Shown here in pieces: positions 4,377 to 49,750 of a DNA stretch of 64,000 nucleotides (positions are counted from its first letter, which is position 1; each line of letters opens with the position of its first letter). Source of the DNA: Ruminococcus sp. UBA4240. Lineage in GTDB: Bacteria > Bacillota > Clostridia > Oscillospirales > Ruminococcaceae. Under the pieces are notes generated by a model. That model was not told where the DNA came from and made no database searches. It saw only the letters and a program-made list of their open reading frames with translations. A program made the translations under genes and the position numbers. The stretch covers positions 18,692 to 82,691 of the forward strand of contig DGXE01000024.1 in the NCBI GenBank assembly GCA_002395525.1, in the 5' to 3' direction.

Positions 4377-6068
4377 ATGACCATGACCAAGAGAGCGTCA
4401 GCCCTCATAATATCCCTGCTCATGCTGCTGGGGATATGCGGGGCATTCCCCGCACGGGCTGCGGCGGCAGATGCTGCATCCATTAAATTCTCATACAGTG
4501 CGGTAACAGTGCCTGTGGGGAAGACCATTACCTTAAAGCCTGTCATAACAGGCCTGCGGGGTCCCCGCCTCAACTGGACCACCACCGACCGCTCCGTTGC
4601 CACAGTGACCGATTCCGGCAAGGTAAAGGGCATAAAGGAAGGCAAGACCACCATCAGTGCGAAGATAAGCAACACCGCCCTTTCCGCATATGTGACCGTG
4701 TATGTGGGCAAGAGGGTCAAGTCTGTCAAGGCTACCCCTGCCGAGATCACCCTTGAACCGGGTAAGACAAAGAAGCTGAAGGTCACTCTTTCCCCCTCAG
4801 ATGCGGCATACAAGGGTCTTATCTACACATCCTCGGATGAAAGCGTTGCAACCGTGAAGAAGGGCACTGTCACCGCTGTGAAGGCAGGCAGCGCTGTCAT
4901 CACCGTGACCGCTGCGGACGGCTCAAAGAAGGCGGCTCAGGTAAAGGTCACCGTAAAGGGCAGTTCCGCCGCTGCCTCAAAAACAGCCTCCACTCAGAAG
5001 ACCACCACAACAACCACCACAAAGAAGATCACCGCCACTGCTACCAACGGCTTTGACACAAAGCTTTCCGCCTTTGACCTTACAAAGAAGATGACCGTGG
5101 GCTGGAACCTGGGCAACGGCCTTGACTCCATCGGTGCATCGGAGACTGCTTGGGGCAACCCCGTCACCACAGAGGCCATGATAAAGGATGTCAAGGCTAT
5201 GGGCTTCAATTCCATACGCATCCCCGTCACCTACCACAAGCACGCCGACAGCAACGGCAACATCGACAGCAAGTGGCTTGACCGTGTGCAGGAGGTAGTT
5301 GACTACGCCTATAAGAACGGTATGTACGTAGTCCTTGACGACCACCACGACAACAGCTTCTACGACATAGGGGGCTGTGTAAAGAATGAGGCGACACTGA
5401 AAGCAAGCCGCAAGAAGATGCAGAACCTGTGGAAGCAGATAGCAAACCGTTTCAAGAGCTACGATCACAAGCTGCTGTTTGAAGTGATGAACGAACCCCG
5501 CACCGAAGGCTCCGCAAAGGAATGGTCAGGGGGCACCAAGGAAGAGCGTGACGTGCTTGCGGTGCTCACTCAGGACTGCGTAGATGCCATAAGGGCAACA
5601 GGGGGCAACAATGCATACCGCTTTGTGGTATGCCCCGCATATGCGGCTACCTCCAACACATCTATACTCAAGGGCACAAAGTTCCCCGATGATGACAGAG
5701 TTATAGTTGACATACACACCTATGCGCCCTACAACTTCGCCATGAACGGCAAGGGTCCCTCGACCTTCACTGACAGCGACAAGAGCGAGATCGACCGTTT
5801 CTACTCCACCATCAACGACATATTCATCTCCAAGGGACGGGCTGTAATAATCGGTGAGAACGGCGCTGTCAACAAGAACAACGAGGATGAGCGCTGCGCA
5901 TGGGCAGAGTACACCATCAAGGCCGCCAAGAAGTACGGCATACCCAACTTCATCTGGGACAACAACTCAAACGGCACAGGTGATGAGGCATTCGGCCTTT
6001 ACGACCGTGCAAACGGCAAATGGTACTGGGAAAAGCTTGCAAAGGCTTACACCTCTGCCGTAAAGTAG
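4377..6068 (+). CDS. secreted glycoside hydrolase family 5 (endoglucanase-like) with two N-terminal Big_2 Ig-like domains and a Thr-rich linker; no dockerin
   Basis: Signal peptide MTMTKRASALIISLLMLLGICGAFPARAAAA. Two units of about 80 aa fit the Big_2 pattern (VTVTDSGKVKGIKEGKTTISA / ATVKKGTVTAVKAGSAVITVTA). TTTTTTKK linker. GH5 hallmarks are GWNLGN, NSIRIPV, FEVMNEPR (acid/base Glu), HTYAPY and IIGENGA (nucleophile Glu). Confidence 0.85.
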   Translation: MTMTKRASALIISLLMLLGICGAFPARAAAADAASIKFSYSAVTVPVGKTITLKPVITGLRGPRLNWTTTDRSVATVTDSGKVKGIKEGKTTISAKISNTALSAYVTVYVGKRVKSVKATPAEITLEPGKTKKLKVTLSPSDAAYKGLIYTSSDESVATVKKGTVTAVKAGSAVITVTAADGSKKAAQVKVTVKGSSAAASKTASTQKTTTTTTTKKITATATNGFDTKLSAFDLTKKMTVGWNLGNGLDSIGASETAWGNPVTTEAMIKDVKAMGFNSIRIPVTYHKHADSNGNIDSKWLDRVQEVVDYAYKNGMYVVLDDHHDNSFYDIGGCVKNEATLKASRKKMQNLWKQIANRFKSYDHKLLFEVMNEPRTEGSAKEWSGGTKEERDVLAVLTQDCVDAIRATGGNNAYRFVVCPAYAATSNTSILKGTKFPDDDRVIVDIHTYAPYNFAMNGKGPSTFTDSDKSEIDRFYSTINDIFISKGRAVIIGENGAVNKNNEDERCAWAEYTIKAAKKYGIPNFIWDNNSNGTGDEAFGLYDRANGKWYWEKLAKAYTSAVK

Positions 6069-9072: not shown

Positions 9073-9687
9073 TCAGCGCCTTTCGTGACCGGTCATTCCA
9101 TCAGTGACTTGTGCATTGTCATAACTTTCGGTCATTATAATATTGCAGCACCAATCCGGGATGTTTTCACATTTATCTGTACAGGTGCCGTTTTCAAATG
9201 CGGCAATAAACCTGAAAGACACCGTGTTATCATATATTTTTACATGATCGCACAATGGCAGGACATTTTTCAGATTTTCCAAAGACTGGATGTAACGATG
9301 TCGGATATCCTTTTCGTCTATCCCATGACCGCCCTTGGCTACTCTTTGACGTACTCTTTCTACCGCAAGATCAGCACTGGAAAGCCCTACATAGTACAAA
9401 TGGATCTCATATCCTGTTTCCTTAGCTTTATTAATGTTCCTGATGATACTTTTGCCGCAGAGAGTAGTTTCCTGATCAAAAGATATGCCTTGTGCCATAT
9501 AACTGTGTATAAGATTTATTGCTATCCTTCCGGATCTGATAACATCCGTGCTGTTCTTCCATGAGCCGAGAGTGCGGACGATCTCATCAAGATTTACCCG
9601 CGGTAAAGTGAGCATTTCCTTATAGGTCTGATAAAGTGTGGTTTTTCCCGCACCGTTCACACCTGCGAATATGATATACTTTTTCAT
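9073..9687 (-). CDS. zeta-toxin-like P-loop kinase (AAA/zeta toxin family)
   Basis: 204 aa. Walker A is at the N-terminus (IIFAGVNGAGKTT). Size and layout resemble the zeta/COG4185 family. The start overlaps the stop of the upstream 61-aa ORF (TGATG). Lies in the low-GC region. Confidence 0.6.
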   Translation of the reverse strand: MKKYIIFAGVNGAGKTTLYQTYKEMLTLPRVNLDEIVRTLGSWKNSTDVIRSGRIAINLIHSYMAQGISFDQETTLCGKSIIRNINKAKETGYEIHLYYVGLSSADLAVERVRQRVAKGGHGIDEKDIRHRYIQSLENLKNVLPLCDHVKIYDNTVSFRFIAAFENGTCTDKCENIPDWCCNIIMTESYDNAQVTDGMTGHERR

Positions 9688-9872
9688 CAGAATCTGTTCT
9701 CCGCTATGACTTTTTTCTGTTTCTGCTGTAAAATATAGTCGGTCATGCTGCGGATAAAGTTTTTTTCTTCATCGCTTTTTGCATTCATTATCAGCTGATA
9801 TGCTTCATCAAGGTCTATATCCCTGCATTTGTCAAACGCTTCATGAAGTACTTCCGATTTGGTATTATCCAT
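9687..9872 (-). CDS. small acidic protein, putative cognate antitoxin of the zeta-like kinase
   Basis: 61 aa, AAGGAG RBS, 1-nt overlap with the kinase gene start. There is no recognisable DNA-binding motif, so the call is positional. Confidence 0.4.
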   Translation of the reverse strand: MDNTKSEVLHEAFDKCRDIDLDEAYQLIMNAKSDEEKNFIRSMTDYILQQKQKKVIAENRF

Positions 9873-9911
9873 ATAGTTCTCCTTTCGTGGACTGTTCCTG
9901 TTCAGGGGGGG

Positions 9912-10004
9912 TTATGTCAGCTTCTGATACATCTTCATAAGCTCCGCTACTATCTCGCTTTCGGTCATGTCGGGCTTGAAGCCGTATTGGCTGTTTATGC
10001 TCAT
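9912..10004 (-). CDS. 30-aa ORF translationally coupled to the S-subunit gene (MSINSQYGFKPDMTESEIVAELMKMYQKLT)
   Basis: The ATG overlaps the TGA of the specificity gene (ATGA). Found by manual translation because it is too short for the ORF track. It could be a gene remnant. Confidence 0.25.
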   Translation of the reverse strand: MSINSQYGFKPDMTESEIVAELMKMYQKLT

Positions 10005-11176
10005 TCACCCGCTACTTTTTTCATAGTCTCGATCACTTTATCTTTATATCTTACTACATCTGCAATAACAACCTTTTCCATAGCACGGATATATCGTTCC
10101 ATATAATCAAAATCAGGTGTTCCGTCTGATTTGATGGGAATAGTAATAAAACATTCTTTGATTCTGTCCCATGTCGCCTTCTTTTCATACGAAAAACGCT
10201 CTTTTGTTAATTTTTCAATACAACGTGCAAGATATAAAAGACTATGTTCAGTAACATCATCAAATGTAGGTTGTATAAGATAAGCATCCCATAAAACTGC
10301 GGTTGCTTGGGGTTGAACATATACTTTGCCCGTTGCAACTGCTCCGTTCTGAATAACATCTATACACATACTCTGAGTGTTCCAATCTTCTTTTCTACCA
10401 TAGAACATGATTCCATTATCGCCTAATTTTGCGTTTATCAGAGGAATACAAAACTCGTCTGTAGGTATTGAAGAAGTATCTTTTCGCTTATCAAAATCTG
10501 CTTTTTTACACTTTGCTTCTACTTTATCAAACAGTTCACTTATCAATATATCTGTAAACTCGACCTTTTCAGATAATACTTTCTTATCATCTTCGGTCAT
10601 TTCATAATCATTCAGACCTGTAGCCTGTAAATACGCATCCAACTCTGTGATACGGTCATGCTCCAACTCTGTGATACGGTCATGCTCCAACTCTGTGATG
10701 CGGTCACGCATATACTGCCAATCAATATCATCGACTGTGTATTCGTGGTCAGGATTAGGGTTTTCAATGACAGGAAGTTCGATTATAGTATTATTCACTC
10801 TTGGCACGAATTCTCTAACAAGATAACTCTGATAATACGCACTATGCTTATTCAATACGCTGATAAAAAATAATGCAAGAGTTTCATCAAAATTGACAAA
10901 TTTAGGAATAAGAGTCTTTGTGAACTGACCCGCATAAAAATCGTGAGTCATATAGTGAAATTTCATACTAATCATTCCAACAGCAAGACTATTACCTGTT
11001 ATCTTGTGGTCTTCATCTAAATATTCAACATATCCGAGAATTCCATTATTATTTTCTGTTCTTGTAAAATACGGATATTGAGCATCTTTGGAAAATGTAA
11101 AATTCTCCTTATCTAACTGAGGATTGTTAATTACATCGAACAAATCGCTTATGTAAAATGTTTTATTCATCAGCAC
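10001..11176 (-). CDS. HsdS-like DNA specificity subunit with two target-recognition domains (BcgI-B-like)
   Basis: 391 aa. The two-TRD architecture has a central helical spacer containing the DRITELEH x3 repeat. Overlaps the upstream methylase gene by 14 nt. Confidence 0.7.
   Translation of the reverse strand: MLMNKTFYISDLFDVINNPQLDKENFTFSKDAQYPYFTRTENNNGILGYVEYLDEDHKITGNSLAVGMISMKFHYMTHDFYAGQFTKTLIPKFVNFDETLALFFISVLNKHSAYYQSYLVREFVPRVNNTIIELPVIENPNPDHEYTVDDIDWQYMRDRITELEHDRITELEHDRITELDAYLQATGLNDYEMTEDDKKVLSEKVEFTDILISELFDKVEAKCKKADFDKRKDTSSIPTDEFCIPLINAKLGDNGIMFYGRKEDWNTQSMCIDVIQNGAVATGKVYVQPQATAVLWDAYLIQPTFDDVTEHSLLYLARCIEKLTKERFSYEKKATWDRIKECFITIPIKSDGTPDFDYMERYIRAMEKVVIADVVRYKDKVIETMKKVAGE
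10638..10709. repeat. 24-bp tandem repeat x3 inside the specificity gene
   Basis: TCCAACTCTGTGATACGGTCATGC occurs at 10638-10661 and 10662-10685 as perfect copies. The third copy at 10686-10709 has 2 mismatches. It encodes (H/R)DRITELE x3. Confidence 0.95.
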
Positions 11177-13181
11177 TCACCTGACCATTCAGAATAGCAG
11201 ACACTTTCCATGCCAGATAATCAGCAACGGTTTTCTTGAAATCCTCTTCAGTCGGTGTAGTATCAATCTTCTTATGCTGATTGAATGTCCAGTCATCACC
11301 ATTCAGAGTGATAGTGTCCTTGATAACCTTACCATTGGACTCAGTATAGTAATCCGTCTTCGGCTTCTTACCAAGGCAGATAGCAACTACTTCGTCATAA
11401 CGCTCTAATGCGTGGTCTGTATTACGCAGATTTACTTCCTGTGTGGACTTCTTACGATTCTGTCTTGAATACCCGTCTTCCGAGAAATCAATGAATGTTA
11501 CCACATCATCTTCTTCGTGTGGGCGGTTTACTTTAAACAGATATATGGCAGTCTGTACAGATGACTTACCGCTGAACAGATCAGCAGGCATACGTATACT
11601 TGCAAGCAGGGTGTTTCTTTTTAACAGTCTTTGTGAGTATACATCGCCCTGACCGCTGCCGGCATTTTCCTGTATCAGAACCGCACCATATCCTTTTTCC
11701 ATTCTTGATAATGCCTCATCAACGAAGATAAGACCTTTGCCCTGTGCTGAATAAGGCGGGTTCAAAAGGAATACATTTGCAGGAAATTCCTGCTTATCAA
11801 TCTCTTTATGAGAGTCACCACAGATAACCTGTGAAGAACCATCACCCATCAGTATCATATTAAGGACGGCAAGGATATAGATATTACCGAGGATCTCGAT
11901 GCCGAGAAGCTGCTTTGATTTAATATTATCAATCTTTTCAGCAAGAGCATCTTTATCCTTGATTTTCGACTTTGCATCGGCGATCATCAGATCCATACCT
12001 GATACAAGGAATCCTGATGAACCCATACAGGTATCCCATACGAATGAATCCATATCTGTTCTACAGATACGAGCCATCAGATTTGTGACGAAACGAGGAG
12101 TGAGGACTACATCATTAAGTCGGTCATTATCAATAGCTACCCAGTCGTTGAGGGAATTGAGTATCTTGCCTGTAAAGTCAAGATGAATATTGCTTTCAAG
12201 AAGCGGCAGTATCTCATTCTTAATCTGCTTATAAACAGATTTGATGATACTTTCGCCTTTGTTCGGTTTCCAAAGATTACGCTTATCAAAAACAGGTTTC
12301 AGATAATCTACAACCATTTTGATTTTATCATCGGAACATTTCTTTTTACGAAGAAATGATTTAGTACGAGCAATAATCTTTGTACCATCATTATCATCAG
12401 TATCATCATTACTGTCAAAATCATCAACTTCCAAAGGCTTAACGCCTTCAGTAGTAAGACCTGCCATGATAAGACCGCAGAAAAAATACAGTTTATCATT
12501 TGTGGAAAGCAGATTTTTAATTTCATTATCATCGTAGATACGCTGATGAATATCTTTTATGCTCTTTTCAAGAAGTTCCTCTTTGCTGCGCTTTAACTTT
12601 TCAAGTTCAGCATCCGTAAGATTAAGAGTATCGAGCATAGCGAAGAAATCATCAATATTCCTGTCTGCCATCATTACAAAATCGAAATCTTTGATTTCCT
12701 TCGGAATACCATTATTCTTCTGTGATACATAATAAGCCTTGATCTCGGGATCAGATATGATTCCATTTTCACCGACAGTTGTTCCGTTGATACCAACAAT
12801 AATGACTTCTTTATATGTACCTTCTGCAAGAATAGCATTGCCATAATGCAAAGCGCCATTGACTGCAAAATTTACAACGGCACTATATGGATTCTTGCCG
12901 CCTGATACAAGTTCAATGTCACCATTCTTTGTCAGTTTCTCCAGTTTTCCTTTAGAGCCTTTTGCTTCGGTCATAACAGGAATATCCCTGCGTGTTTTGT
13001 TCTGCAAAAGTATCTTTATATCGGGATAGTTGTTTCCACCATTTCCTGATTTTGAGTCAGCATTTTTAAGAGCATAGTCAATAGAACGATTGATGGATTC
13101 GGTCTTTCCGTAATGTCTGATTTTCAGGTTGTCAAGTTCTGCCTTGTAATATTCCTCAACTTTTTCTTCAACACTTGCCAT
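11163..13181 (-). CDS. fused PD-(D/E)xK nuclease-like domain plus gamma-class N6-adenine DNA methyltransferase (BcgI-A-like Type IIB RM subunit)
   Basis: 672 aa. Motif I is FVWDTCMGSSGFLV and motif IV is LLNPPYSAQG. The N-terminal 180 aa or so carry P53-D54...E72-A-K74 (YPDIKILL...VMTEAKG). No HsdR is present in the window. Confidence 0.6.
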   Translation of the reverse strand: MASVEEKVEEYYKAELDNLKIRHYGKTESINRSIDYALKNADSKSGNGGNNYPDIKILLQNKTRRDIPVMTEAKGSKGKLEKLTKNGDIELVSGGKNPYSAVVNFAVNGALHYGNAILAEGTYKEVIIVGINGTTVGENGIISDPEIKAYYVSQKNNGIPKEIKDFDFVMMADRNIDDFFAMLDTLNLTDAELEKLKRSKEELLEKSIKDIHQRIYDDNEIKNLLSTNDKLYFFCGLIMAGLTTEGVKPLEVDDFDSNDDTDDNDGTKIIARTKSFLRKKKCSDDKIKMVVDYLKPVFDKRNLWKPNKGESIIKSVYKQIKNEILPLLESNIHLDFTGKILNSLNDWVAIDNDRLNDVVLTPRFVTNLMARICRTDMDSFVWDTCMGSSGFLVSGMDLMIADAKSKIKDKDALAEKIDNIKSKQLLGIEILGNIYILAVLNMILMGDGSSQVICGDSHKEIDKQEFPANVFLLNPPYSAQGKGLIFVDEALSRMEKGYGAVLIQENAGSGQGDVYSQRLLKRNTLLASIRMPADLFSGKSSVQTAIYLFKVNRPHEEDDVVTFIDFSEDGYSRQNRKKSTQEVNLRNTDHALERYDEVVAICLGKKPKTDYYTESNGKVIKDTITLNGDDWTFNQHKKIDTTPTEEDFKKTVADYLAWKVSAILNGQVSADE

Positions 13182-36478: not shown

Positions 36479-38395
36479 ATGGAACAGGAACAGGCCAACC
36501 GCAGAAAAGATATTATAAAGAATATTCTTATAATATTCCTTATCATAATGCTGCTGCTGACATTCTTCTCAAATACCATACTCAACTACTCCCTGCCCCA
36601 GGTCTCGGCGGTGTATGCCACCCAGGCCACCATTTCCGAGCAGATAAGGGGCAGCGGGAGCGTGCAGCCTGCACAGACCTATGAGGTGAAGATAAACGAG
36701 GATCGTGAGGTCAAGAGCGTGCTCGTGCGTGTGGGAGACACCATCAAGGCGGGAGATACCATCGCCATACTTGAGGATGTGGACAATTCCACCGCCGTAC
36801 AGGAGGCAAGGGACAAGCTGGCAGACCTGGAGCTTGACTACCGCAAGGCGCTGCTGGACTCAAACTCCACCTCCTACAGCTCAGACATCCTTGCCATAGA
36901 GCGGGCGGAGCAGGAGCTGGAAAAGCTGAAGAAGCAGCGTGAGGAGGCTGTCAAGTATGAGGCCGAATCCAAGGAGGCAGCCACCGATGTGCGCACAGCC
37001 ACTGCTGATGTGGACAAGCTGAAGGCTGAAAAGGAAAAGTACAACACTATGCTCTCCTCCGCAAGCACAGAGGATATGCTGGATCTCACCGATGCCCACT
37101 ACAAGAAGATACAGGCGGCAAAGCAGGCTGTTACCGATGCGGAGAAGGCATTTGCCGATGCCCAGGCCGCATACAAGAAATTCTCATCAGGCATAGACAC
37201 CACTGATATAGACAGCACTCTCATCGCAAAGCGCAACGAGGCTGACAAGCTGCGCACGGAGAACAACAACCTGTACACCAAGATAGCCAATGCGGAGGCG
37301 GGCGCAGATACATCGAGCTATTCGGAGACCATTGCCAACAATATCACCACCATCAACAACCTGAACCGTGAGATCTCAAACCTTATGCACAAGCAGTCCC
37401 TGACTGCCGGCGACAAGAAAAAGCTCGAAGACCTTGAAAAGGCACAGGAAAAGGCTGAGAAGGCCGTCACCGATGCCAAGGATGCCCAGGCTCAGGCTAT
37501 AAGAGAGGTAAAGCTGGAGATAAAGGGCTGGATAGACGACGTGGACAGAAGGCTTGAAGCCGCTAATGGAAAGCTCACCGACGTTACCAACCGCAAGGAC
37601 GACATCGCAGGCCAGGGCATATCCAAGGTGTCCGATATAGACAGCAAGATAGAGAGCCAGGAAGCCTCAATACAGAAGCTCAAGGATGACCTTCACAACA
37701 AGCAGATCACGGATTCCACCGCTGCATCAAAGACACAGCTTGACCTGGAATCAAAGAAGAATGCGGTGGACAGGCAGCAGAGAGCCCTTGACAAGCTCCT
37801 TGCCGGCACCGATAAGGAGATAGTCTCCAAGTCCGGCGGCGTGGTGGCAAGCATAAACATATCCGCAGGCAGCAAGGCTGAGGCGGGCAAGGTAGTAGCC
37901 ACCGTGAATGTAACGGATCTGGGGTACCTCATTGAGATGCCCGTAAAGGCGGAGCAGGCCAAGAAGATCCGTGTGGGGGACATTGCAGAAGTAGTGTCCT
38001 GGTACGGCTCCAACATCTCCGCTACCGTCAAGGAGATCAAGGCGGACAGCAACAACCCCCAGTCACAGAAGATACTCGTGTTTGAGATAACCGGCGATGA
38101 CATAACCGTTGGACAGAACCTTACCCTGCAAATGGGCAGCAAGGGTCAGCAGTACTCCGTTACCGTGCCCAACAACGCCATCAGGGAGGACTCAAACGGC
38201 AAATACGTGCTGGTGATGGAATCAAAGTCCTCACCCCTTGGCAACAGGTACAAGGCAGCCCGCTACCCTGTTGAGGTGCTGGCAAAGGATGAGAAGAACT
38301 CCGCAGTATCGGGTCTTTCCGGCAATGAGTTCGTCATCACCACCTCCACAAAGCCCATAAACGCAGGTGCTCAGGTAAGACCTGCGGAGGACTGA
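36479..38395 (+). CDS. HlyD/membrane-fusion-protein-like adaptor with an exceptionally long coiled coil
   Basis: 638 aa. N-terminal TM segment, lipoyl-like half motif (VLVRVGDTIKAGDTIAILED), about 330 aa of heptad-rich charged helix, then the second lipoyl half and a beta-barrel (GGVVASINISAGSKAEAGKVVATV...). Confidence 0.65.
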   Translation: MEQEQANRRKDIIKNILIIFLIIMLLLTFFSNTILNYSLPQVSAVYATQATISEQIRGSGSVQPAQTYEVKINEDREVKSVLVRVGDTIKAGDTIAILEDVDNSTAVQEARDKLADLELDYRKALLDSNSTSYSSDILAIERAEQELEKLKKQREEAVKYEAESKEAATDVRTATADVDKLKAEKEKYNTMLSSASTEDMLDLTDAHYKKIQAAKQAVTDAEKAFADAQAAYKKFSSGIDTTDIDSTLIAKRNEADKLRTENNNLYTKIANAEAGADTSSYSETIANNITTINNLNREISNLMHKQSLTAGDKKKLEDLEKAQEKAEKAVTDAKDAQAQAIREVKLEIKGWIDDVDRRLEAANGKLTDVTNRKDDIAGQGISKVSDIDSKIESQEASIQKLKDDLHNKQITDSTAASKTQLDLESKKNAVDRQQRALDKLLAGTDKEIVSKSGGVVASINISAGSKAEAGKVVATVNVTDLGYLIEMPVKAEQAKKIRVGDIAEVVSWYGSNISATVKEIKADSNNPQSQKILVFEITGDDITVGQNLTLQMGSKGQQYSVTVPNNAIREDSNGKYVLVMESKSSPLGNRYKAARYPVEVLAKDEKNSAVSGLSGNEFVITTSTKPINAGAQVRPAED

Positions 38396-38450: not shown

Positions 38451-38460
38451 GGTGTTTTCT

Positions 38461-39555
38461 ATGTCAAAGAAAGCTAACAAACTGACAAAACTTGATATTG
38501 TGTGCATAGTCATAGATGTGATCGCAGCAATTGCAGTGGGGATCATCCTTGGGGCTATAAACAGCATCAAGGGCAGCACCGGCGCAGACAGCGCCGCAAG
38601 TGCCTGGGGCAACGGCGAGAGCCGCTATGCACAGGCGGCAGTCTATTTCACCTATCTGTCGGGCTTTGATATAAACGGTGCCCATTCCATGCACAGCGCC
38701 GTGGAGCAGTACCTTGCCTCACAGGTGGATCTGAAAAAGGCGGAGCACCGTGTCTGGGTAGACTGCGGGTACGGTGAATCCTCAGGCAGCGCCCAGGGCA
38801 CTTTGGGCAGCACGGATGCAGTGCTGTGCGGCACATGGGGGGATTACTTCCTCTTTCACCCGGGGGATTTCATCTCAGGCAGCATTTATGAGGACAACGA
38901 TATGAACCTTGATGTGTGCGTGCTTGACAACACAGCCTCCTGGATACTGTTCGGCGGCCTTGACACGGCGGGTATGACTGTCACCATAAATGACAGGGCT
39001 TACCTGGTGGTGGGGGTCATTGACCAGGGGATGAAGACAAATTCCGACTTTGCCGCCTACGGCAGCAAGCCCCGCATATATATGCCCTATCAGTCCCTGA
39101 AAAACCTGAAGGAAGCCGCTTCCATGACCTCCTACGAGATATGCATCCCCTATGTGCTGGACGGCTATGCACTGGAAGCCATCAAGAAGGGCGTTTCCGC
39201 AGATGAGAGCACCTACATGGCAGTGGATGAATCGGGGCGGTTCGACCTGGTAAAGCTGGTGAGGAGCTTCCCCGGCATATTCAACAACGTTATGGTGGCA
39301 GGGGGCATAGTCTACCCCTGGTATGAAAACGTCCTGCGGGCAGCGGAGATAAAGTGTGTCATACTGGCATTCATGGGAGCTGTGATACTGATAATCGGCA
39401 TCATCGTGTTCGTGTACCTGTTCTTCCGCTTCACCAAGGCATTCGCTGCCTTCGTCAAGTGGATAAAGAGCAAGTTTGACGCATCCTATCAGCGGCGCAT
39501 ATCCAAGAAATACTACAAGACCCACCCCCGCCCGAAGGAGAACCCACAGACCTGA
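38461..39555 (+). CDS. bitopic membrane protein with a MacB-type periplasmic core domain but no FtsX TM bundle
   Basis: N-terminal TM segment, an extracytoplasmic domain of about 270 aa (VLDNTASWILFGGLDTAGMTVTINDRAYLVVGVIDQG is MacB_PCD-like), one C-terminal TM segment and a basic tail. The ORF track gives a GTG start at 38452. Confidence 0.5.
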   Translation: MSKKANKLTKLDIVCIVIDVIAAIAVGIILGAINSIKGSTGADSAASAWGNGESRYAQAAVYFTYLSGFDINGAHSMHSAVEQYLASQVDLKKAEHRVWVDCGYGESSGSAQGTLGSTDAVLCGTWGDYFLFHPGDFISGSIYEDNDMNLDVCVLDNTASWILFGGLDTAGMTVTINDRAYLVVGVIDQGMKTNSDFAAYGSKPRIYMPYQSLKNLKEAASMTSYEICIPYVLDGYALEAIKKGVSADESTYMAVDESGRFDLVKLVRSFPGIFNNVMVAGGIVYPWYENVLRAAEIKCVILAFMGAVILIIGIIVFVYLFFRFTKAFAAFVKWIKSKFDASYQRRISKKYYKTHPRPKENPQT

Positions 39556-39578
39556 GGCGGGAAGCAAGGGCAGAAAAC

Positions 39579-39617
39579 AGCCATCTCATCCATATGGTGA
39601 GATGGCTTGATTTTTTG
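39579..39617 (+). terminator. rho-independent terminator
   Basis: AGCCATCTCA / TGAGATGGCT stem followed by TGATTTTTTG. Confidence 0.75.
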
Positions 39618-39820
39618 TGCGGTTTAAGATTGGTTTAAGGTTCGTGTGCTATTCTCATAGTCAAAGGGTGACCCCCCACCCTTTGATAGTGATATCATCT
39701 TTTTCCTTTTTTCCTTTTTTCCTTTTTCTCCCCCATGAAGCGGCCGGGCATCACAGGATGCTGCGGCTGCTTTATTTTTGCAGACTCAAGGCAGAAAGAG
39801 GAGAAAAAGTATGCTTGCAA

Positions 39821-40625
39821 TTGCGGAAATAAAGCAGGAAAGAGGTGGCAAACCAATATCAAATACCAGGTGTAGAGGCTTATTTTACCCAAAGCTATCA
39901 AAAACTGCCAATTTCACGGACGATAGAGAACATTACTCATTAAGCCCAAGGAAAATGGTGCGTATACAAGCCATTCATAGTGTTCCCGTGAAATTGGGGG
40001 CATTCGCGAAAACAAAGCAAGCAAAGAGGAAATAAAGCTATATCGAATGCATTTGCGGAAATAAAGCAAGCAAAGAGGAAGCAAAGCAATATCGAACGCC
40101 TTTGCGAAAATAAAACAGGAAAAGAGGGAGTAAAGCAACGTCGAATGCATTTGCGGAAATAAAGCAGGAAAGAGGTGGCAAACCAATATCAAATACCAAG
40201 TGTAGAAGTTTATTTTACCCAAAGCCATCAAAAACTGCCAATTTCACGGAGTAGGAGGATTATACTTGCCATAGACTAATAAGAAAATGGGGAGAAATTA
40301 AACAATCAATACTTCACCAGCAGTGAAATTGGGGGCATTCGCAAAAACAAAGCAAGCAAAGAGGTGGCAAATCAATATCAAATACCAGGTGTAGAAGTTT
40401 ATTTTACCCAAAGCCATCAAAAACTGCCAATTTCACGGACGATAGAGAACATTATTCTCATTAAGCCCAAGGAAATTGGTGCGTATATTCAAGCCATTCA
40501 TAATGTTCCCGTGAAATTGGGGGCATTCGCGGAAATAAAGCAAGCAAAGAGAAAACAAAGCTATATCGAATGCATTTGCGGAAATAAAGCAAGCAAAGAG
40601 GAAACAAAGCAATATCGAACGCCAT
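39821..40625. repeat. nested noncoding repeat array (100-bp unit A x3, 88-bp unit B x2, degenerate tandem units of about 49 bp, three conserved long-loop hairpins)
   Basis: Unit A lies at 39821-39920, 40151-40250 and (partial) 40361-40439. Unit B lies at 39921-40008 and 40440-40531. CCAATTTCACGG / CCGTGAAATTGG inverted pairs lie at 39908/39986, 40238/40323 and 40427/40509. Confidence 0.9.
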
Positions 40626-40662
40626 TGTAACCAAATATTGGCAAAAAAATGCCCGTAAACAC

Positions 40663-40691
40663 TTGAAATGCCCCTGCTTGTGTGCTATAAT
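40663..40691 (+). promoter_or_regulatory. sigma-A type promoter of the 40742 gene
   Basis: TTGAAA (40663-40668), 17-nt spacer, TATAAT (40686-40691). Confidence 0.6.
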
Positions 40692-40741
40692 CAAAATAAG
40701 GATGATACCACCTCGCAAAAAGGAAAAAGGAGTGATTTTGA

Positions 40742-42721
40742 ATGAAAAACGCAACAGCAAAAAGAGCGGCAGCCGCTCTTGCAGCTCTGCTCATGACTGT
40801 GTCCGCAGGTACGGGGGTACTTGCCACAGAGTACTATTATGAGCCTACACACCTGGCGGGCTACTACTACAACAGCAAAACAGGCTTCTGGTACGATGAC
40901 TACAACCAGGCAGTAGCTGCGGCTATGGATCTGGGGGGCACGGATGCCGATGTGCATTACATAAAGCCGGCAGTTGATTCAAGCTCGGTGTGCAATGCCA
41001 CATATCAGTGGTACAACGGCAACACCAAAAAGTATTACCGCACCGAGACGGATGCCTGGAACGCAGATATACAGGCTGAGACCTACAATGCATGGGAGCG
41101 CCTCAATGTTGATTCTTCCACTAAGGTGAGTGCAAACTATCCCTGGTACAATTCCAAGACTAACAGATACTACAGATCCCAGTCCGATGCGGCAAAGGCC
41201 TCCGGAGGGGACTATTCCGGCGTTGTCTATGCCTTTGACGACACCACCTACAATACCACCTGCACTGCGGATTTCCCCTGGTACAACACCTATACCAACA
41301 GGTACTACAAGACCCAGTCCGCCGCAGCTCAGGCTGATACAAGGGGCACTGTCTACAATGCGTGGACCAACAGCGACTATTCCGCCAATGTAAGCTCCAC
41401 CTACCCCTGGTACAATACTGCCACAGGCAGATACTACCGCACGGAGCAGGCCGCAAGATCCGCATCTGCCGGAGGCACTGTCACCTATGCGTACAGCGCT
41501 GCCACCTCCAACAGGGCAAGCGCCACATATCCCTGGTACAGTGCGCTGACAAAGCTCTACTACAAGACCTATCAGGCAGCCCTTGCCGCATCCGGCAACA
41601 ACGATGCCTATGTATCACAGCAGTACACTGCCACATCAAAGAGTGCAAGCTCCACCTATCCCTGGTACAGCTCCTACACCAACCTGTACTACAAGACCAA
41701 GGAAGATGCCGTGGCTGCATCCCTTTACAGCGAGGGCTACGTATCCTACGCCTATTACCAGAGCTCAAAGAGCGCCAGCGCTACCTATCCCTGGTACAGC
41801 AACATGACAGGGCTGTACTACAAGTCCTATTCGGATGCCCTCAACGCCTCCGGCGGCAGGGAATCCGCAGTTTCACAGAAGTATTTTGCCACATCCAATT
41901 CCGTGAGCCAGACCTATCCCTGGTACTCATCCTACACGAAGAAGTACTACAAGACCCAGAACGATGCCATCAACGCTTCAAACGGCAACGCAGGCTATGT
42001 TTCCTACGCATACAGCAATGTGGCATACTCCAACAGTGTAAGCAAGACCTATCCCTGGTACAGCAGCGTTACAAGGCGCTACTACAAGACCTATGATGAT
42101 GCCCTTTCCGTATCCAACGGCAATCCTTCCTATGTAAGCATGGCATACAGCTCAGGCACATCCTCAACGACCACACGCACAACCACCTCCGTATCCTCCG
42201 GCACGCCCTATATCAACGGCCTCAAGAGCTACAACGGCTGGACAAAGGTAGCATCCTACCTGAGAGGACATACGGGCACCATATATGTGCGCATGAACGG
42301 GGCAACATCCGTTCCCTCCAGTGTATTCTCCGCAATGAAGGGACGCAACATCACCGCCGTGTTCATACTTTCAAACGGCATAAGATGGACAGTAAACGGC
42401 AGGAATGTTGGCACAGCAAGGACTGTTGACGTTTACTCCGCCTCCACAAAGGCCATACCTTCGAGCGCTGTACGCAAGGTATCCTACGGCTCGGTGGGCA
42501 CAGCACAGGTGCTTGCAGGCAGCCCTGATACATCCTTTGGCTTTACGGGCAAGATAACCGTAAAGCTGAACAAGTCCCGTGCAGGCAGGAGAGTAGTAGT
42601 TTACCGCTACAGCACCGTAACACGCAAGCTGTACAGCAACTCCACCACATCTGTTTCCTCCACAGGTCATGTGACCTTCTCCGCATCAAAGGGCGGCTAT
42701 TATCTCATAGTCATAAAGTAA
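40742..42721 (+). CDS. secreted protein with 9-10 YPWY(N/S)xxTxxYY(K/R)T repeats and a C-terminal beta-rich domain
   Basis: 659 aa. Signal peptide MKNATAKRAAAALAALLMTVSAGTGVLA. Repeats have a period of about 42 aa from about aa 85 to 470. A Ser/Thr linker follows, then a domain of about 170 aa of unknown type. Confidence 0.8.
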   Translation: MKNATAKRAAAALAALLMTVSAGTGVLATEYYYEPTHLAGYYYNSKTGFWYDDYNQAVAAAMDLGGTDADVHYIKPAVDSSSVCNATYQWYNGNTKKYYRTETDAWNADIQAETYNAWERLNVDSSTKVSANYPWYNSKTNRYYRSQSDAAKASGGDYSGVVYAFDDTTYNTTCTADFPWYNTYTNRYYKTQSAAAQADTRGTVYNAWTNSDYSANVSSTYPWYNTATGRYYRTEQAARSASAGGTVTYAYSAATSNRASATYPWYSALTKLYYKTYQAALAASGNNDAYVSQQYTATSKSASSTYPWYSSYTNLYYKTKEDAVAASLYSEGYVSYAYYQSSKSASATYPWYSNMTGLYYKSYSDALNASGGRESAVSQKYFATSNSVSQTYPWYSSYTKKYYKTQNDAINASNGNAGYVSYAYSNVAYSNSVSKTYPWYSSVTRRYYKTYDDALSVSNGNPSYVSMAYSSGTSSTTTRTTTSVSSGTPYINGLKSYNGWTKVASYLRGHTGTIYVRMNGATSVPSSVFSAMKGRNITAVFILSNGIRWTVNGRNVGTARTVDVYSASTKAIPSSAVRKVSYGSVGTAQVLAGSPDTSFGFTGKITVKLNKSRAGRRVVVYRYSTVTRKLYSNSTTSVSSTGHVTFSASKGGYYLIVIK

Positions 42722-42732
42722 TTCACTGCTTT

Positions 42733-42767
42733 CCGCCTTCCCCCACGGGGAGGGCGGATTTGTTTAT
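42733..42767 (+). terminator. rho-independent terminator
   Basis: CCGCCTTCCCC / GGGGAGGGCGG stem (one G-T pair) followed by ATTTGTTTATT. Confidence 0.65.
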
Positions 42768-43011: not shown

Positions 43012-43737
43012 ATGAAATTCGATAAGTTTGCAGGACTGGCTGCAGCCGCTCTGGCCGTATCACTTCTTACCACCGGCGTAAGCGCTCAGGGCAACAGCAA
43101 GTACATTGAAGAGAGGACCGCCGGCAAGGACTACTTCATGACCGTAAACAGCTCAGATGATTCCATCGCCGCATGGTGCAAGGATTCCGGCGTTGATGTT
43201 ACCGAGGTTTACGGCTGCAGATTCTATATCACCGTAAATGATCCTTCACAGGGCTACGGCGGCGCTATCGGCATCAATGCCACCGCCAACAACTGGGAGG
43301 CTCACGAGTGGGGCAATGACGGTGCAGGCAAGGCTATCACCTCTGACGGCTCTACCATTGAGTTCATGTCAGATTCCCCTGCATTCAAGGCTGACGATGA
43401 GTACGCCAACTTCTTCCTCCAGAACTGGTGGGGCGATTTCAGCGTTGATGACTGCGACCTGCTTGACAAGGACGGCAACGTTCTCGAGGCTGTAGGCGCT
43501 GCTGCTGAGGAGGCTCCCGCTGAGGAGGCTGTTGAGGAAGTTGTTGAGGAAGAGGTAGTTGAAGAGGCTGCTCCCGCTGAGGAAGCTGTTGTTGAAGAGG
43601 CTCCTGCCGCTGAGGAAGCTGCTCCCGCCGCTGTTGCAGATACCACAGCTCCCAAGACCGGCAATGCATCCGCTGCTGCCGTTGCAGTTGTTATGATAGC
43701 TGCTGCAGGCGCTATGGCTCTTTCCAAGAGAAAGTAA
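43012..43737 (+). CDS. cell-wall-anchored surface protein with an xPKTG sorting signal
   Basis: 241 aa. Signal peptide, a globular domain of about 130 aa, an acidic (E/A/V/P) linker, then TAPKTGN plus a hydrophobic stretch plus KRK. Confidence 0.7.
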   Translation: MKFDKFAGLAAAALAVSLLTTGVSAQGNSKYIEERTAGKDYFMTVNSSDDSIAAWCKDSGVDVTEVYGCRFYITVNDPSQGYGGAIGINATANNWEAHEWGNDGAGKAITSDGSTIEFMSDSPAFKADDEYANFFLQNWWGDFSVDDCDLLDKDGNVLEAVGAAAEEAPAEEAVEEVVEEEVVEEAAPAEEAVVEEAPAAEEAAPAAVADTTAPKTGNASAAAVAVVMIAAAGAMALSKRK

Positions 43738-48365: not shown

Positions 48366-48449
48366 CCCCGGATGAAAAAAAGCCCCTCTTTTTGTTAGTA
48401 TCTTGTTATAGTGGATGTGGTATACTCATAATCAAAGGGGGCAACAAAC

Positions 48450-49160
48450 ATGAAATTCGATGCATTTACAAAGGTTATTATAGGTGTGGTTTTAGGAGCG
48501 GTAGTAATTACCGTTATCCTTTCCAATATGGGGCTCATCGGGATAAAGCATGAGACGGCAGTCCTCCGTGAAAAGCCCGTGAAGGCAGAGATCGTCGTAT
48601 TTACCGATGATATAGATACATCCGATTCCCTTTCCGCCGCATACAGGTTTTACTGCGCCAATACGGACAGCTACTATACCTGCCCGGAGGATGCCCTTGC
48701 AGATGCAGGGGATGAGAACGCCGCCGTGTGCGATGCCTGGGTCATGGCAAATACAGACTGCGCCTATGAACCCTCCTCCGCATATCCCTGGTTCTGCGAA
48801 AGGGTGGGCAAGTACTTCACCTGTGAGGAGGATGCCATTGCCGCAGCCGAGGCTGCGGGAGGCAGCAGGGACGATGTAAGCCTTGCCGGTGTACAGGTGA
48901 CCACCTCCTCCGGGGCAAGCGTTGTCTACCCCTGGAAGAACCTTTCCACAGGCCGCTTCTACATGACAAAGGCGGATGCCGCTGCCGCCTCCGGCGGTGA
49001 TGAGGGCATGGTGACCCTTGCCTATGAGAACTACTGCACCGACAGTGCCGACGAAGCTCACCCCTGGTTCAACACCGCCTCCGGGAAGTATTACGCTACC
49101 GAAGCTGCTGCCAATGCAGCAGGGGACGGCGTGACCTTCCTGTGCGGCGAGAGCTTCTGA
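48450..49160 (+). CDS. membrane-anchored protein with 4 YPW(F/Y)-type repeats (paralog family of 40742)
   Basis: 236 aa with an N-terminal TM anchor. The repeats are YRFYCANTDSYYTCPEDA, YPWFCERVGKYFTCEEDA, YPWKNLSTGRFYMTKADA and HPWFNTASGKYYATEAAA. Confidence 0.75.
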   Translation: MKFDAFTKVIIGVVLGAVVITVILSNMGLIGIKHETAVLREKPVKAEIVVFTDDIDTSDSLSAAYRFYCANTDSYYTCPEDALADAGDENAAVCDAWVMANTDCAYEPSSAYPWFCERVGKYFTCEEDAIAAAEAAGGSRDDVSLAGVQVTTSSGASVVYPWKNLSTGRFYMTKADAAAASGGDEGMVTLAYENYCTDSADEAHPWFNTASGKYYATEAAANAAGDGVTFLCGESF

Positions 49161-49267
49161 AAAAATTTTTGAAAACCCTGAGTTTTTGTTAGGGTGTTGT
49201 TATGGTCGGTATGATATAATTGATACATCAAAGAGAGAAAAACCTTTGAATTGAAAGGAGCAGATAT

Positions 49268-49750
49268 ATGACAAAGATGAAATTAAGAGCAATGACAGTA
49301 GCTTTAATGATAATGTCCCTGTGCGGTGCAGGCGTTATGGCGGCAAGTGATGCCCCTGCCTGTGAGAAGGAGCTGCCCACCCTTTCCTCCATGCACCAGA
49401 CAGCAGCTGAGACAGCCGTAAAGCCCCCGATAAAGAGTCCCGAAAAGCCCCCGATAAAGAGTTCCGACAGACTTACGGGAGTCTACTGCTGGTACTGTGA
49501 GCATACAGGAAGATATTACATTGACGAGGAAGATGCCTACAACGACCAGCCCTATGCCGAGGCAGAGATATACAACGCATGGGAGCTGATGAACCAAGAT
49601 ACCACATACGTTCCCGACGAGAACCACAGATGGTGCAGCACAAGGACCGGCCTTTGCTACGCCTCCAAGGGAGCAGCCCTTGACATCACCATGGCAATGG
49701 GCGGCACTGCCAGCGAAGTAATAGACGTATCTGAGTACATCAAGAAGTAG
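49268..49750 (+). CDS. secreted small protein with 2 divergent repeats of the same family
   Basis: 160 aa with a signal peptide. Carries a tandem PPIKSPEK/PPIKSSDR motif, then YCWYCEHTGRYYIDEEDA and HRWCSTRTGLCYASKGAA. Confidence 0.7.
   Translation: MTKMKLRAMTVALMIMSLCGAGVMAASDAPACEKELPTLSSMHQTAAETAVKPPIKSPEKPPIKSSDRLTGVYCWYCEHTGRYYIDEEDAYNDQPYAEAEIYNAWELMNQDTTYVPDENHRWCSTRTGLCYASKGAALDITMAMGGTASEVIDVSEYIKK

Follow-up and report, generated by a model that had tools for sequence, protein, structure and literature searches.

Within a 64,000-nucleotide stretch of Ruminococcus sp. UBA4240 DNA (contig DGXE01000024.1, positions 18,692 to 82,691 of the forward strand; hereafter the window, from whose first letter all positions are counted), three genes encode exported proteins that are built on the same short, aromatic-rich tandem repeat, and this repeat matches no named family in the libraries that were searched. 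The largest of the three, gene A (open reading frame 40742–42721, + strand), specifies an exported protein of 659 amino acids, laid out as a signal peptide, ten repeat units, a Thr/Ser-rich linker and a C-terminal domain. The two smaller ones, gene B (open reading frame 48450–49160, + strand; 236 amino acids) and gene C (open reading frame 49268–49750, + strand; 160 amino acids), carry four and two units, respectively.

Gene A is preceded by a near-consensus promoter (TTGAAA-17 nt-TATAAT with an extended -10 TG; 40663–40691, + strand), which gave 11 of 12 matches in a consensus scan, and by a strong purine-rich ribosome-binding site (AAAGGAAAAAGGAG) ahead of the ATG. A strong intrinsic terminator follows the gene (42732–42758, + strand; a 12-bp stem with 9 GC pairs, then a T-run), and since gene A has a terminator of its own it is monocistronic. 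The N-terminal 28 residues (MKNATAKRAAAALAALLMTVSAGTGVLA; 40742–40825, + strand) form a Sec-type signal peptide, as judged by eye. The array, delimited with a hidden Markov model (HMM), covers residues 37–471 (40850–42154, + strand), and its units start at nucleotides 40850, 40994, 41129, 41264, 41393, 41519, 41648, 41777, 41906 and 42041. It is followed by a Thr/Ser-rich linker recognized by eye (GTSSTTTRTTTSVSS; 42155–42199, + strand) and by a two-lobed C-terminal domain (residues 487–659; 42200–42718, + strand) modelled with AlphaFold2. The mature protein is basic (isoelectric point, pI, 9.4) and contains 13% Tyr and two Cys in 631 residues, and the repeat region consists of 15.5% Tyr, 14.6% Ser and 11% Thr. 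No LPXTG-type sortase anchor is present in A, whose C-terminus is a β-strand (...GGYYLIVIK) without a match to the NCBIfam model LPXTG_anchor; likewise, no sortase, SLH or CWB2 anchor was matched in A with Pfam and NCBIfam.

The repeat module comprises about 38 amino acids and recurs in A at a spacing of 42–48 amino acids, a period of about 43. The iterated HMM places the ten units at residues 37, 85, 130, 175, 218, 260, 303, 346, 389 and 434, of which the degenerate first one has the weakest domain E-value, 2.5e-7, and the best reaches 1.7e-18. In A, the strict motif [YF][PQ]WY[NS]xxTxxYY[KR][TS] is found nine times, whereas 20,000 composition-preserving shuffles of the protein yielded not a single copy. 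Across 323 units, the consensus reads S-T-Y-P-[WY]-Y-S-S-Y-T-G-[RK]-Y-Y-x-T-x-x-D-A-L-A-A-S-G-G-N-S-S-Y-V. Column conservation is highest at A20 (98%), V31 (97%), Y14 (95%), Y3 (88%), Y6 (86%) and T10 (85%), so that each unit presents five conserved aromatic positions in addition to Ala and Val core positions. At the DNA level, Tandem Repeats Finder (TRF) reports a single 129-bp period in A with 1.9 copies and 73% identity, and because the DNA copies are just 73% alike the duplication is old. The repeats are real and non-random, and a six-frame scan of the window with the unit HMM found A, B and C to be their sole carriers.

The proteins encoded by B and C differ from A in charge and cysteine content. 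B has an N-terminal membrane anchor (residues 8–31, by eye), a pI of 4.2 and eight Cys, and its four units begin at residues 62, 109, 157 and 201 (nucleotides 48633, 48774, 48918 and 49050). C has a signal peptide (residues 1–25, by eye), a pI of 4.6 and five Cys, and its two Cys-containing units begin at residues 70 and 117 (nucleotides 49475 and 49616). Cysteines bracket the module in units 1 and 2 of B (model positions 7 and 16) and in both units of C. Upstream of each gene lies a block of 47 nucleotides, detected as a direct repeat and by alignment, at 48378–48424 (+ strand) for B and at 49172–49218 (+ strand) for C. The two blocks are 72% identical and each includes a weak sigma-70-like site (TTGTTA-18-CATAAT and TTGTTA-18-TATGAT, respectively; 9 of 12 matches each). 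At 90% identity or more, B has 22 orthologues in metagenome-assembled genomes (MAGs) of Oscillospiraceae and C has 14, the latter always next to B; all of them are named hypothetical proteins. An earlier, sequence-only reading of this DNA had described nine clear and one degenerate copy of the module in the 659-residue protein, four in B and two in C, cysteine bracketing in the two small paralogs and a conserved block upstream of both, and each of these descriptions was recovered, the repeat being delineated by the HMM as well as by a regular expression. The same reading had proposed that B and C arose by a duplication that included the promoter. The shared block and the conserved adjacent pair in related MAGs speak for this, and the proposal is rated as plausible.

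AlphaFold2 modelled units 8–10 of A with a mean predicted local distance difference test (pLDDT) of 89.8 and a predicted template modelling score (pTM) of 0.58, from an alignment of 34 rows that were all family members. The three modelled units are alike: two short strands form a hairpin, in which PWYS and YYK flank a T-G turn, and are followed by a two-turn helix of seven residues (xxDAxxAS) and a short third strand (YVS). The helix that the sequence-only reading had expected to trail the hairpin is thus borne out by the model of a two- to three-repeat segment that it had proposed as a check. The model predicts that the units fold independently, each stabilized by its conserved Tyr/Trp, Ala and Val residues. 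In distant relatives of the repeat, disulfide-type cysteines occupy some of these positions.

Comparison between strains indicates that the three genes are maintained. A 205-kb metagenome scaffold matches the window, and MAGs labelled Oscillospiraceae bacterium contain orthologues of B, C and the housekeeping genes at 90% identity or more. The related strain L010 is fully syntenic, with an A orthologue of exactly 659 amino acids that shares 95.8% identity. Against L010, pN/pS (the ratio of nonsynonymous to synonymous polymorphism) is 0.15 for both A and C, 0.21 for B and 0.03–0.18 for neighbouring housekeeping genes. The repeat genes A, B and C are genuine and under selective constraint. The possibility that A is a hypervariable contingency locus is ruled out by the equal length and the pN/pS of 0.15 between strains. 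Between genera, A evolves fast, its best homologue from outside the strain group being 35–44% identical.

Searches for a known family were consistently negative. Whole A, B and C have no match in Pfam-A (2025), NCBIfam 20, PHROGs or PADLOC, and 77 single units searched at E ≤ 10 gave scattered one-off matches, with CW_binding_1, Kazal and NUMOD all absent. The single-unit matches to OCRE (E = 6.7e-4, one unit), zf-CCCH_UNK and HNH_repeat are isolated and compositional and were rejected. Distant relatives of the repeat, scanned in the same way, likewise showed no consistent family match. A profile of the unit searched against PDB sequences returned as its sole match the CDR-H3 (third complementarity-determining region of the heavy chain) of antibody 10E8 (E ≥ 0.3), which was set aside as chance. 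Foldseek searches with the three-unit model gave nothing below E = 1.2 in the PDB and nothing below E = 0.2 in BFVD. The top PDB match is follistatin, which aligns over 118 columns without significance (E = 1.2, probability 0.10, template modelling (TM) score 0.27, root-mean-square deviation 7.8 Å). The themes among the non-significant fold matches, namely follistatin/Kazal, B-box/U-box and phage homing-endonuclease modules, serve as leads on the fold class and are no evidence of membership. The sequence-only reading had been unable to assign the repeat to any named family, and the null results in Pfam, NCBIfam, PHROGs, PADLOC and PDB sequences bear it out.

The repeat is rare. A word-indexed search of 5.8 billion proteins yielded 23 homologues of A, all unannotated, and those with a named source come from Oscillospiraceae MAGs. 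An exhaustive search with the unit profile among 1.84 billion representatives yielded 60 clusters at E ≤ 1e-3, which are mostly of the Oscillospiraceae type. The sources of the homologues are rumen and gut metagenomes. A genome scan with a strict pattern hit 2 of 185,579 species genomes, a figure that owes to the great strictness of the pattern and is not an estimate of distribution. Among the carriers, the majority architecture is that of A, with a signal peptide, 3–11 units and the same C-terminal domain. Units are combined with Big_2 behind a signal peptide in P0024, P0028 and, as seen by eye, P0035, and with fn3 in P0037. Small repeat-only proteins also occur (P0027 and P0041, as well as P0029 and P0045, which are orthologues of B and C), and the number of units per protein varies from 2 to 11. 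Every carrier, A, B and C included, starts with a signal peptide, an anchor or a lipoprotein-like N-terminus, as judged by eye, and a Pfam scan of ten carriers revealed no enzyme domain. In addition, a phage tail tape-measure-like protein (P0073 / P0150; phrog_25241, phrog_35029), represented by Joint Genome Institute (JGI) metagenome proteins from outside the window, contains two borderline units (YFSSTTNKFYTSYAAALKD and YYSSTTGKYYENYTEALKD) with a whole-protein E-value of 2e-4, which hints that the module may also occur in phage structural proteins.

A more distant group of relatives is rich in cysteine, with about six Cys per unit and the pattern CC-x5-P-[YF]-Y-C-x2-T-x2-C-Y-x-T-x3-A-x2-A-C-G-x2-C-x2-C, as exemplified by a hypothetical protein of Flavobacterium caeni (P0056). 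An HMM built from the Cys-rich units alone scores A at 76 bits and aligns in register with nine of its ten units, the degenerate first unit being missed, against a maximum of 6.7 bits among 1,000 composition-matched shuffles. Furthermore, hhalign relates the alignments of Tyr-type and Cys-rich units with 96% probability (E = 3.8e-9) over the hairpin and the helix. The comparison is partly circular, because it was the Tyr-type profile that first picked up the Cys-rich units. Judged by these profiles, the Cys-rich group is truly related to the Tyr-type repeat. Relatives in the same register are what would be expected of a small extracellular fold that can be stabilized by either aromatics or disulfides.

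The C-terminal domain of A was modelled by AlphaFold2 as two lobes with a pLDDT of 94.1 and a pTM of 0.86. It has no match in Pfam or among PDB sequences, the search of the domain profile against the PDB included, and its fold matches are weak (ZU5 and β-sandwich carbohydrate-binding module (CBM) or amylase-C domains; TM ≤ 0.49, E ≥ 4.6e-3). A further database search with this domain mainly returned short fragments. The domain is also found in other Oscillospiraceae proteins and in P0023, a GLUG-motif protein that has no repeats, so it is an independent module. It appears to be a second undescribed domain and may act as a wall-association module.

The surroundings of gene A contain several further features. 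The 1.2 kb of non-coding DNA upstream of it (39556–40741) includes a 105-nucleotide segment and a 142-nucleotide segment, each present three times, as well as a 49-bp tandem repeat; this repeated DNA occurs nowhere else in the window and has no Rfam match. Its copy number varies between strains, since the corresponding region of L010 measures only 625 nucleotides and two other assemblies break inside it. Just upstream of the repeated DNA lie genes for a membrane protein with a MacB_PCD domain (38452–39555, + strand) and a HlyD/YknX-like adaptor (36479–38395, + strand), which are syntenic with A in L010, but nothing ties them to it functionally. Directly downstream of A, a gene at 43012–43737 (+ strand) encodes a secreted protein of 241 amino acids with an acidic Glu/Ala/Val-rich linker. 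Its C-terminus consists of APKTGN, a hydrophobic segment and KRK, which constitutes a sortase anchor of the (S/P)PxTG type; it matches LPXTG_anchor and CD1107-like models weakly, and its N-terminal domain belongs to no family. Elsewhere in the window, a low-GC island (9073–13181, - strand; GC 0.38–0.43 compared to about 0.53 elsewhere) with HsdS and HsdM of a type I restriction-modification system and a zeta-toxin-like kinase was probably acquired horizontally. A gene at 4377–6068 (+ strand) encodes a secreted cellulase of glycoside hydrolase family 5 (GH5) with two Big_2 domains, which suggests a fibre-degrading lifestyle of the host.

The favoured reading of the repeat, to which we assign a probability of roughly 0.45, is that the array would bind a repetitive polymer, either a glycan or a wall polymer, in a multivalent manner and with low affinity. 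The aromatics in each unit are too many for so small a fold to bury, so the array should expose Tyr periodically, and in tandem the units would display a long and regular strip of tyrosines outside the cell. Type-A carbohydrate-binding modules and tandem wall-binding repeats usually bind repetitive polymers through such aromatic strips. The sequence-only reading had likewise suggested a glycan-binding or cell-wall-binding module, a reasonable guess by analogy. Candidate ligands would be the wall glycopolymers or peptidoglycan of the organism itself, or plant or host glycans. The three proteins would present the array differently: in A, it would lie between the signal peptide and the C-terminal domain; in B, the N-terminal anchor would keep it at the membrane; and in C, it would be released in a small and soluble form. 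The fusion partners, Big_2, fn3 and the β-sandwich-containing C-terminal domain, support an extracellular, adhesin-like context, and the GH5 cellulase of the host together with the rumen and gut origin of the homologues is consistent with a fibre-associated lifestyle. Several points weigh against polymer binding. The PDB and BFVD fold searches linked the repeat to no fold that binds carbohydrates or cell walls, and the exposure of the tyrosines is deduced from residue counts, not from model coordinates. The shallow alignment of 34 rows and the pTM of 0.58 make the arrangement of the units relative to one another uncertain. A is basic and B and C are acidic, so it is not obvious how all three could bind one electrostatic ligand, for instance teichoic acid. 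Finally, homologues in other genera have unrelated neighbours and hence no conserved gene neighbourhood, so the gene context suggests no pathway.

The main alternative, though a doubtful one, is that the array has no ligand of its own and acts either as a rigid, passive stalk that would project or space the C-terminal domain or as a self-assembling unit of an abundant, S-layer-like coat, with B and C as accessory structural proteins. The monocistronic organization of A with its strong transcription and translation signals, its Ser/Thr/Ala/Tyr-rich, cysteine-poor and basic composition, its fast divergence between genera combined with conservation within the species and its lack of a sortase, SLH or CWB2 anchor are together typical of surface-coat proteins, and the stalk domains Big_2 and fn3 co-occur with the repeat. 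However, B and C consist nearly entirely of repeats, yet B is already anchored and C is small and soluble, which argues that the unit itself does something; moreover, the strong conservation of the aromatics exceeds what a spacer needs. A quite different origin for the conserved pattern would be a disordered low-complexity region rich in Tyr, Ser and Thr, whose periodicity stems from recent tandem duplication of the DNA. The biased composition of the repeat region and the 129-bp period reported by TRF are what such a region would show, but we regard this explanation as next to impossible: the DNA copies are old at 73% identity, conservation is position specific, the strict motif is absent from all 20,000 shuffles, the fold is predicted confidently and identically for each unit, the genes are under purifying selection, and the unit remains recognizable in other phyla at a very different composition.

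Two further alternatives would assign the repeat to a known fold. The unit might be a Kazal/follistatin-like module devoid of metal and disulfides, in which case the arrays, especially those of the Cys-rich relatives, would be extracellular protease inhibitors. The order of elements (β1-β2-α-β3) agrees with that of the Kazal fold, follistatin, which itself contains tandem Kazal domains, heads the PDB Foldseek matches, and the distant relatives have about six Cys per unit. Against this, the follistatin match is non-significant, no Kazal family was matched at E ≤ 10 by the 77 units or by ten Cys-rich relatives, and A has neither disulfides nor an evident reactive-site loop, which leaves the inhibitor explanation very improbable. 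That the repeat is a divergent choline-binding or clostridial repeat of the CW_binding_1 type, masked by sequence drift, is scarcely credible. The likeness, aromatic-rich hairpins around a Gly turn that are arranged in tandem on exported Firmicute proteins, is superficial, and the CW_binding_1 model matches neither A, B and C at E ≤ 1 nor the 77 units at E ≤ 10. The period is about 43 compared to about 20 amino acids, with an extra helix and a third strand in each unit, and no choline-binding structure is found among the PDB matches. The sequence-only reading had separated the repeat from this family on its spacing and trailing helix, and the separation stands.

Polymer binding and a coat-like role could also be joined. 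The repeat would then represent a new and scattered superfamily of extracellular mini-domains, built around an aromatic core in gut and rumen Oscillospiraceae and around disulfides in Flavobacterium and environmental bacteria, that would constitute a new CBM-like or anchor class and provide an abundant Oscillospiraceae coat protein with its main exposed surface; taken as a whole, this is rather unlikely. Oscillospiraceae are abundant and mostly uncultured in gut and rumen, and very little is known of their surface proteins. The unit boundaries, the consensus, the alignment, which is ready for HMM building, and the list of carriers now allow family curators to add the repeat, and this takes three "hypothetical proteins" per genome out of the dark matter. 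If the array does bind a glycan or wall polymer, it would provide a new anchoring or adhesion module for Oscillospiraceae and a compact aromatic scaffold that could interest protein engineers. That one fold occurs both with a Tyr core and with a disulfide core would illustrate alternative ways to stabilize an extracellular mini-domain. For the present, the repeat ranks as a well-characterized domain of unknown function.

Among known systems, CW_binding_1 (PF01473) is the natural functional analogy for multivalent binding of a wall polymer by tandem aromatic-rich β-hairpin repeats on exported Firmicute proteins. However, each of its repeats is a single hairpin, and the T-G turn and the DAxxAS helix described here are not found in choline-binding repeats. 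Kazal and follistatin modules are likewise small extracellular units in tandem, with a hairpin, a helix and a strand in the same order, and the distant relatives of the repeat share their richness in disulfides. Kazal modules are held by three disulfides, whereas A, B and C use Tyr/Trp and have no reactive-site loop signature. The NUMOD and IENR modules of phage homing endonucleases also form strings of short β-β-α-type elements and recur as the best fold matches in BFVD, and by eye some units of the family (YxYNGxxYxTLxEAxxAGG) resemble them. They are, however, intracellular DNA binders and the repeat proteins are exported; no unit matches NUMOD, and the BFVD matches lie at E ≥ 0.2 with a TM score of about 0.2.

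Literature on the motif and on Tyr-rich surface proteins of Oscillospiraceae offered nothing relevant except an analogy with Sbi. The Tyr-rich Y domain of Staphylococcus aureus Sbi keeps a secreted protein on the envelope via lipoteichoic acid and without LPXTG (PMC3378709). Sbi is a functional precedent only; its Y region is not known to consist of this repeat. Big_2 and fn3 resemble the repeat in occurring in the same proteins (P0024, P0028 and P0037), in being used in tandem and in varying in copy number, but these are Ig-like β-sandwiches of 80–100 amino acids, whereas the repeat is an α/β mini-domain of about 38. An architecture of small tandem repeats is familiar for Gram-positive surface proteins, and nothing here points to a new mechanism. 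The repeat itself is, so far as the searched libraries tell, a real and undescribed extracellular domain family.

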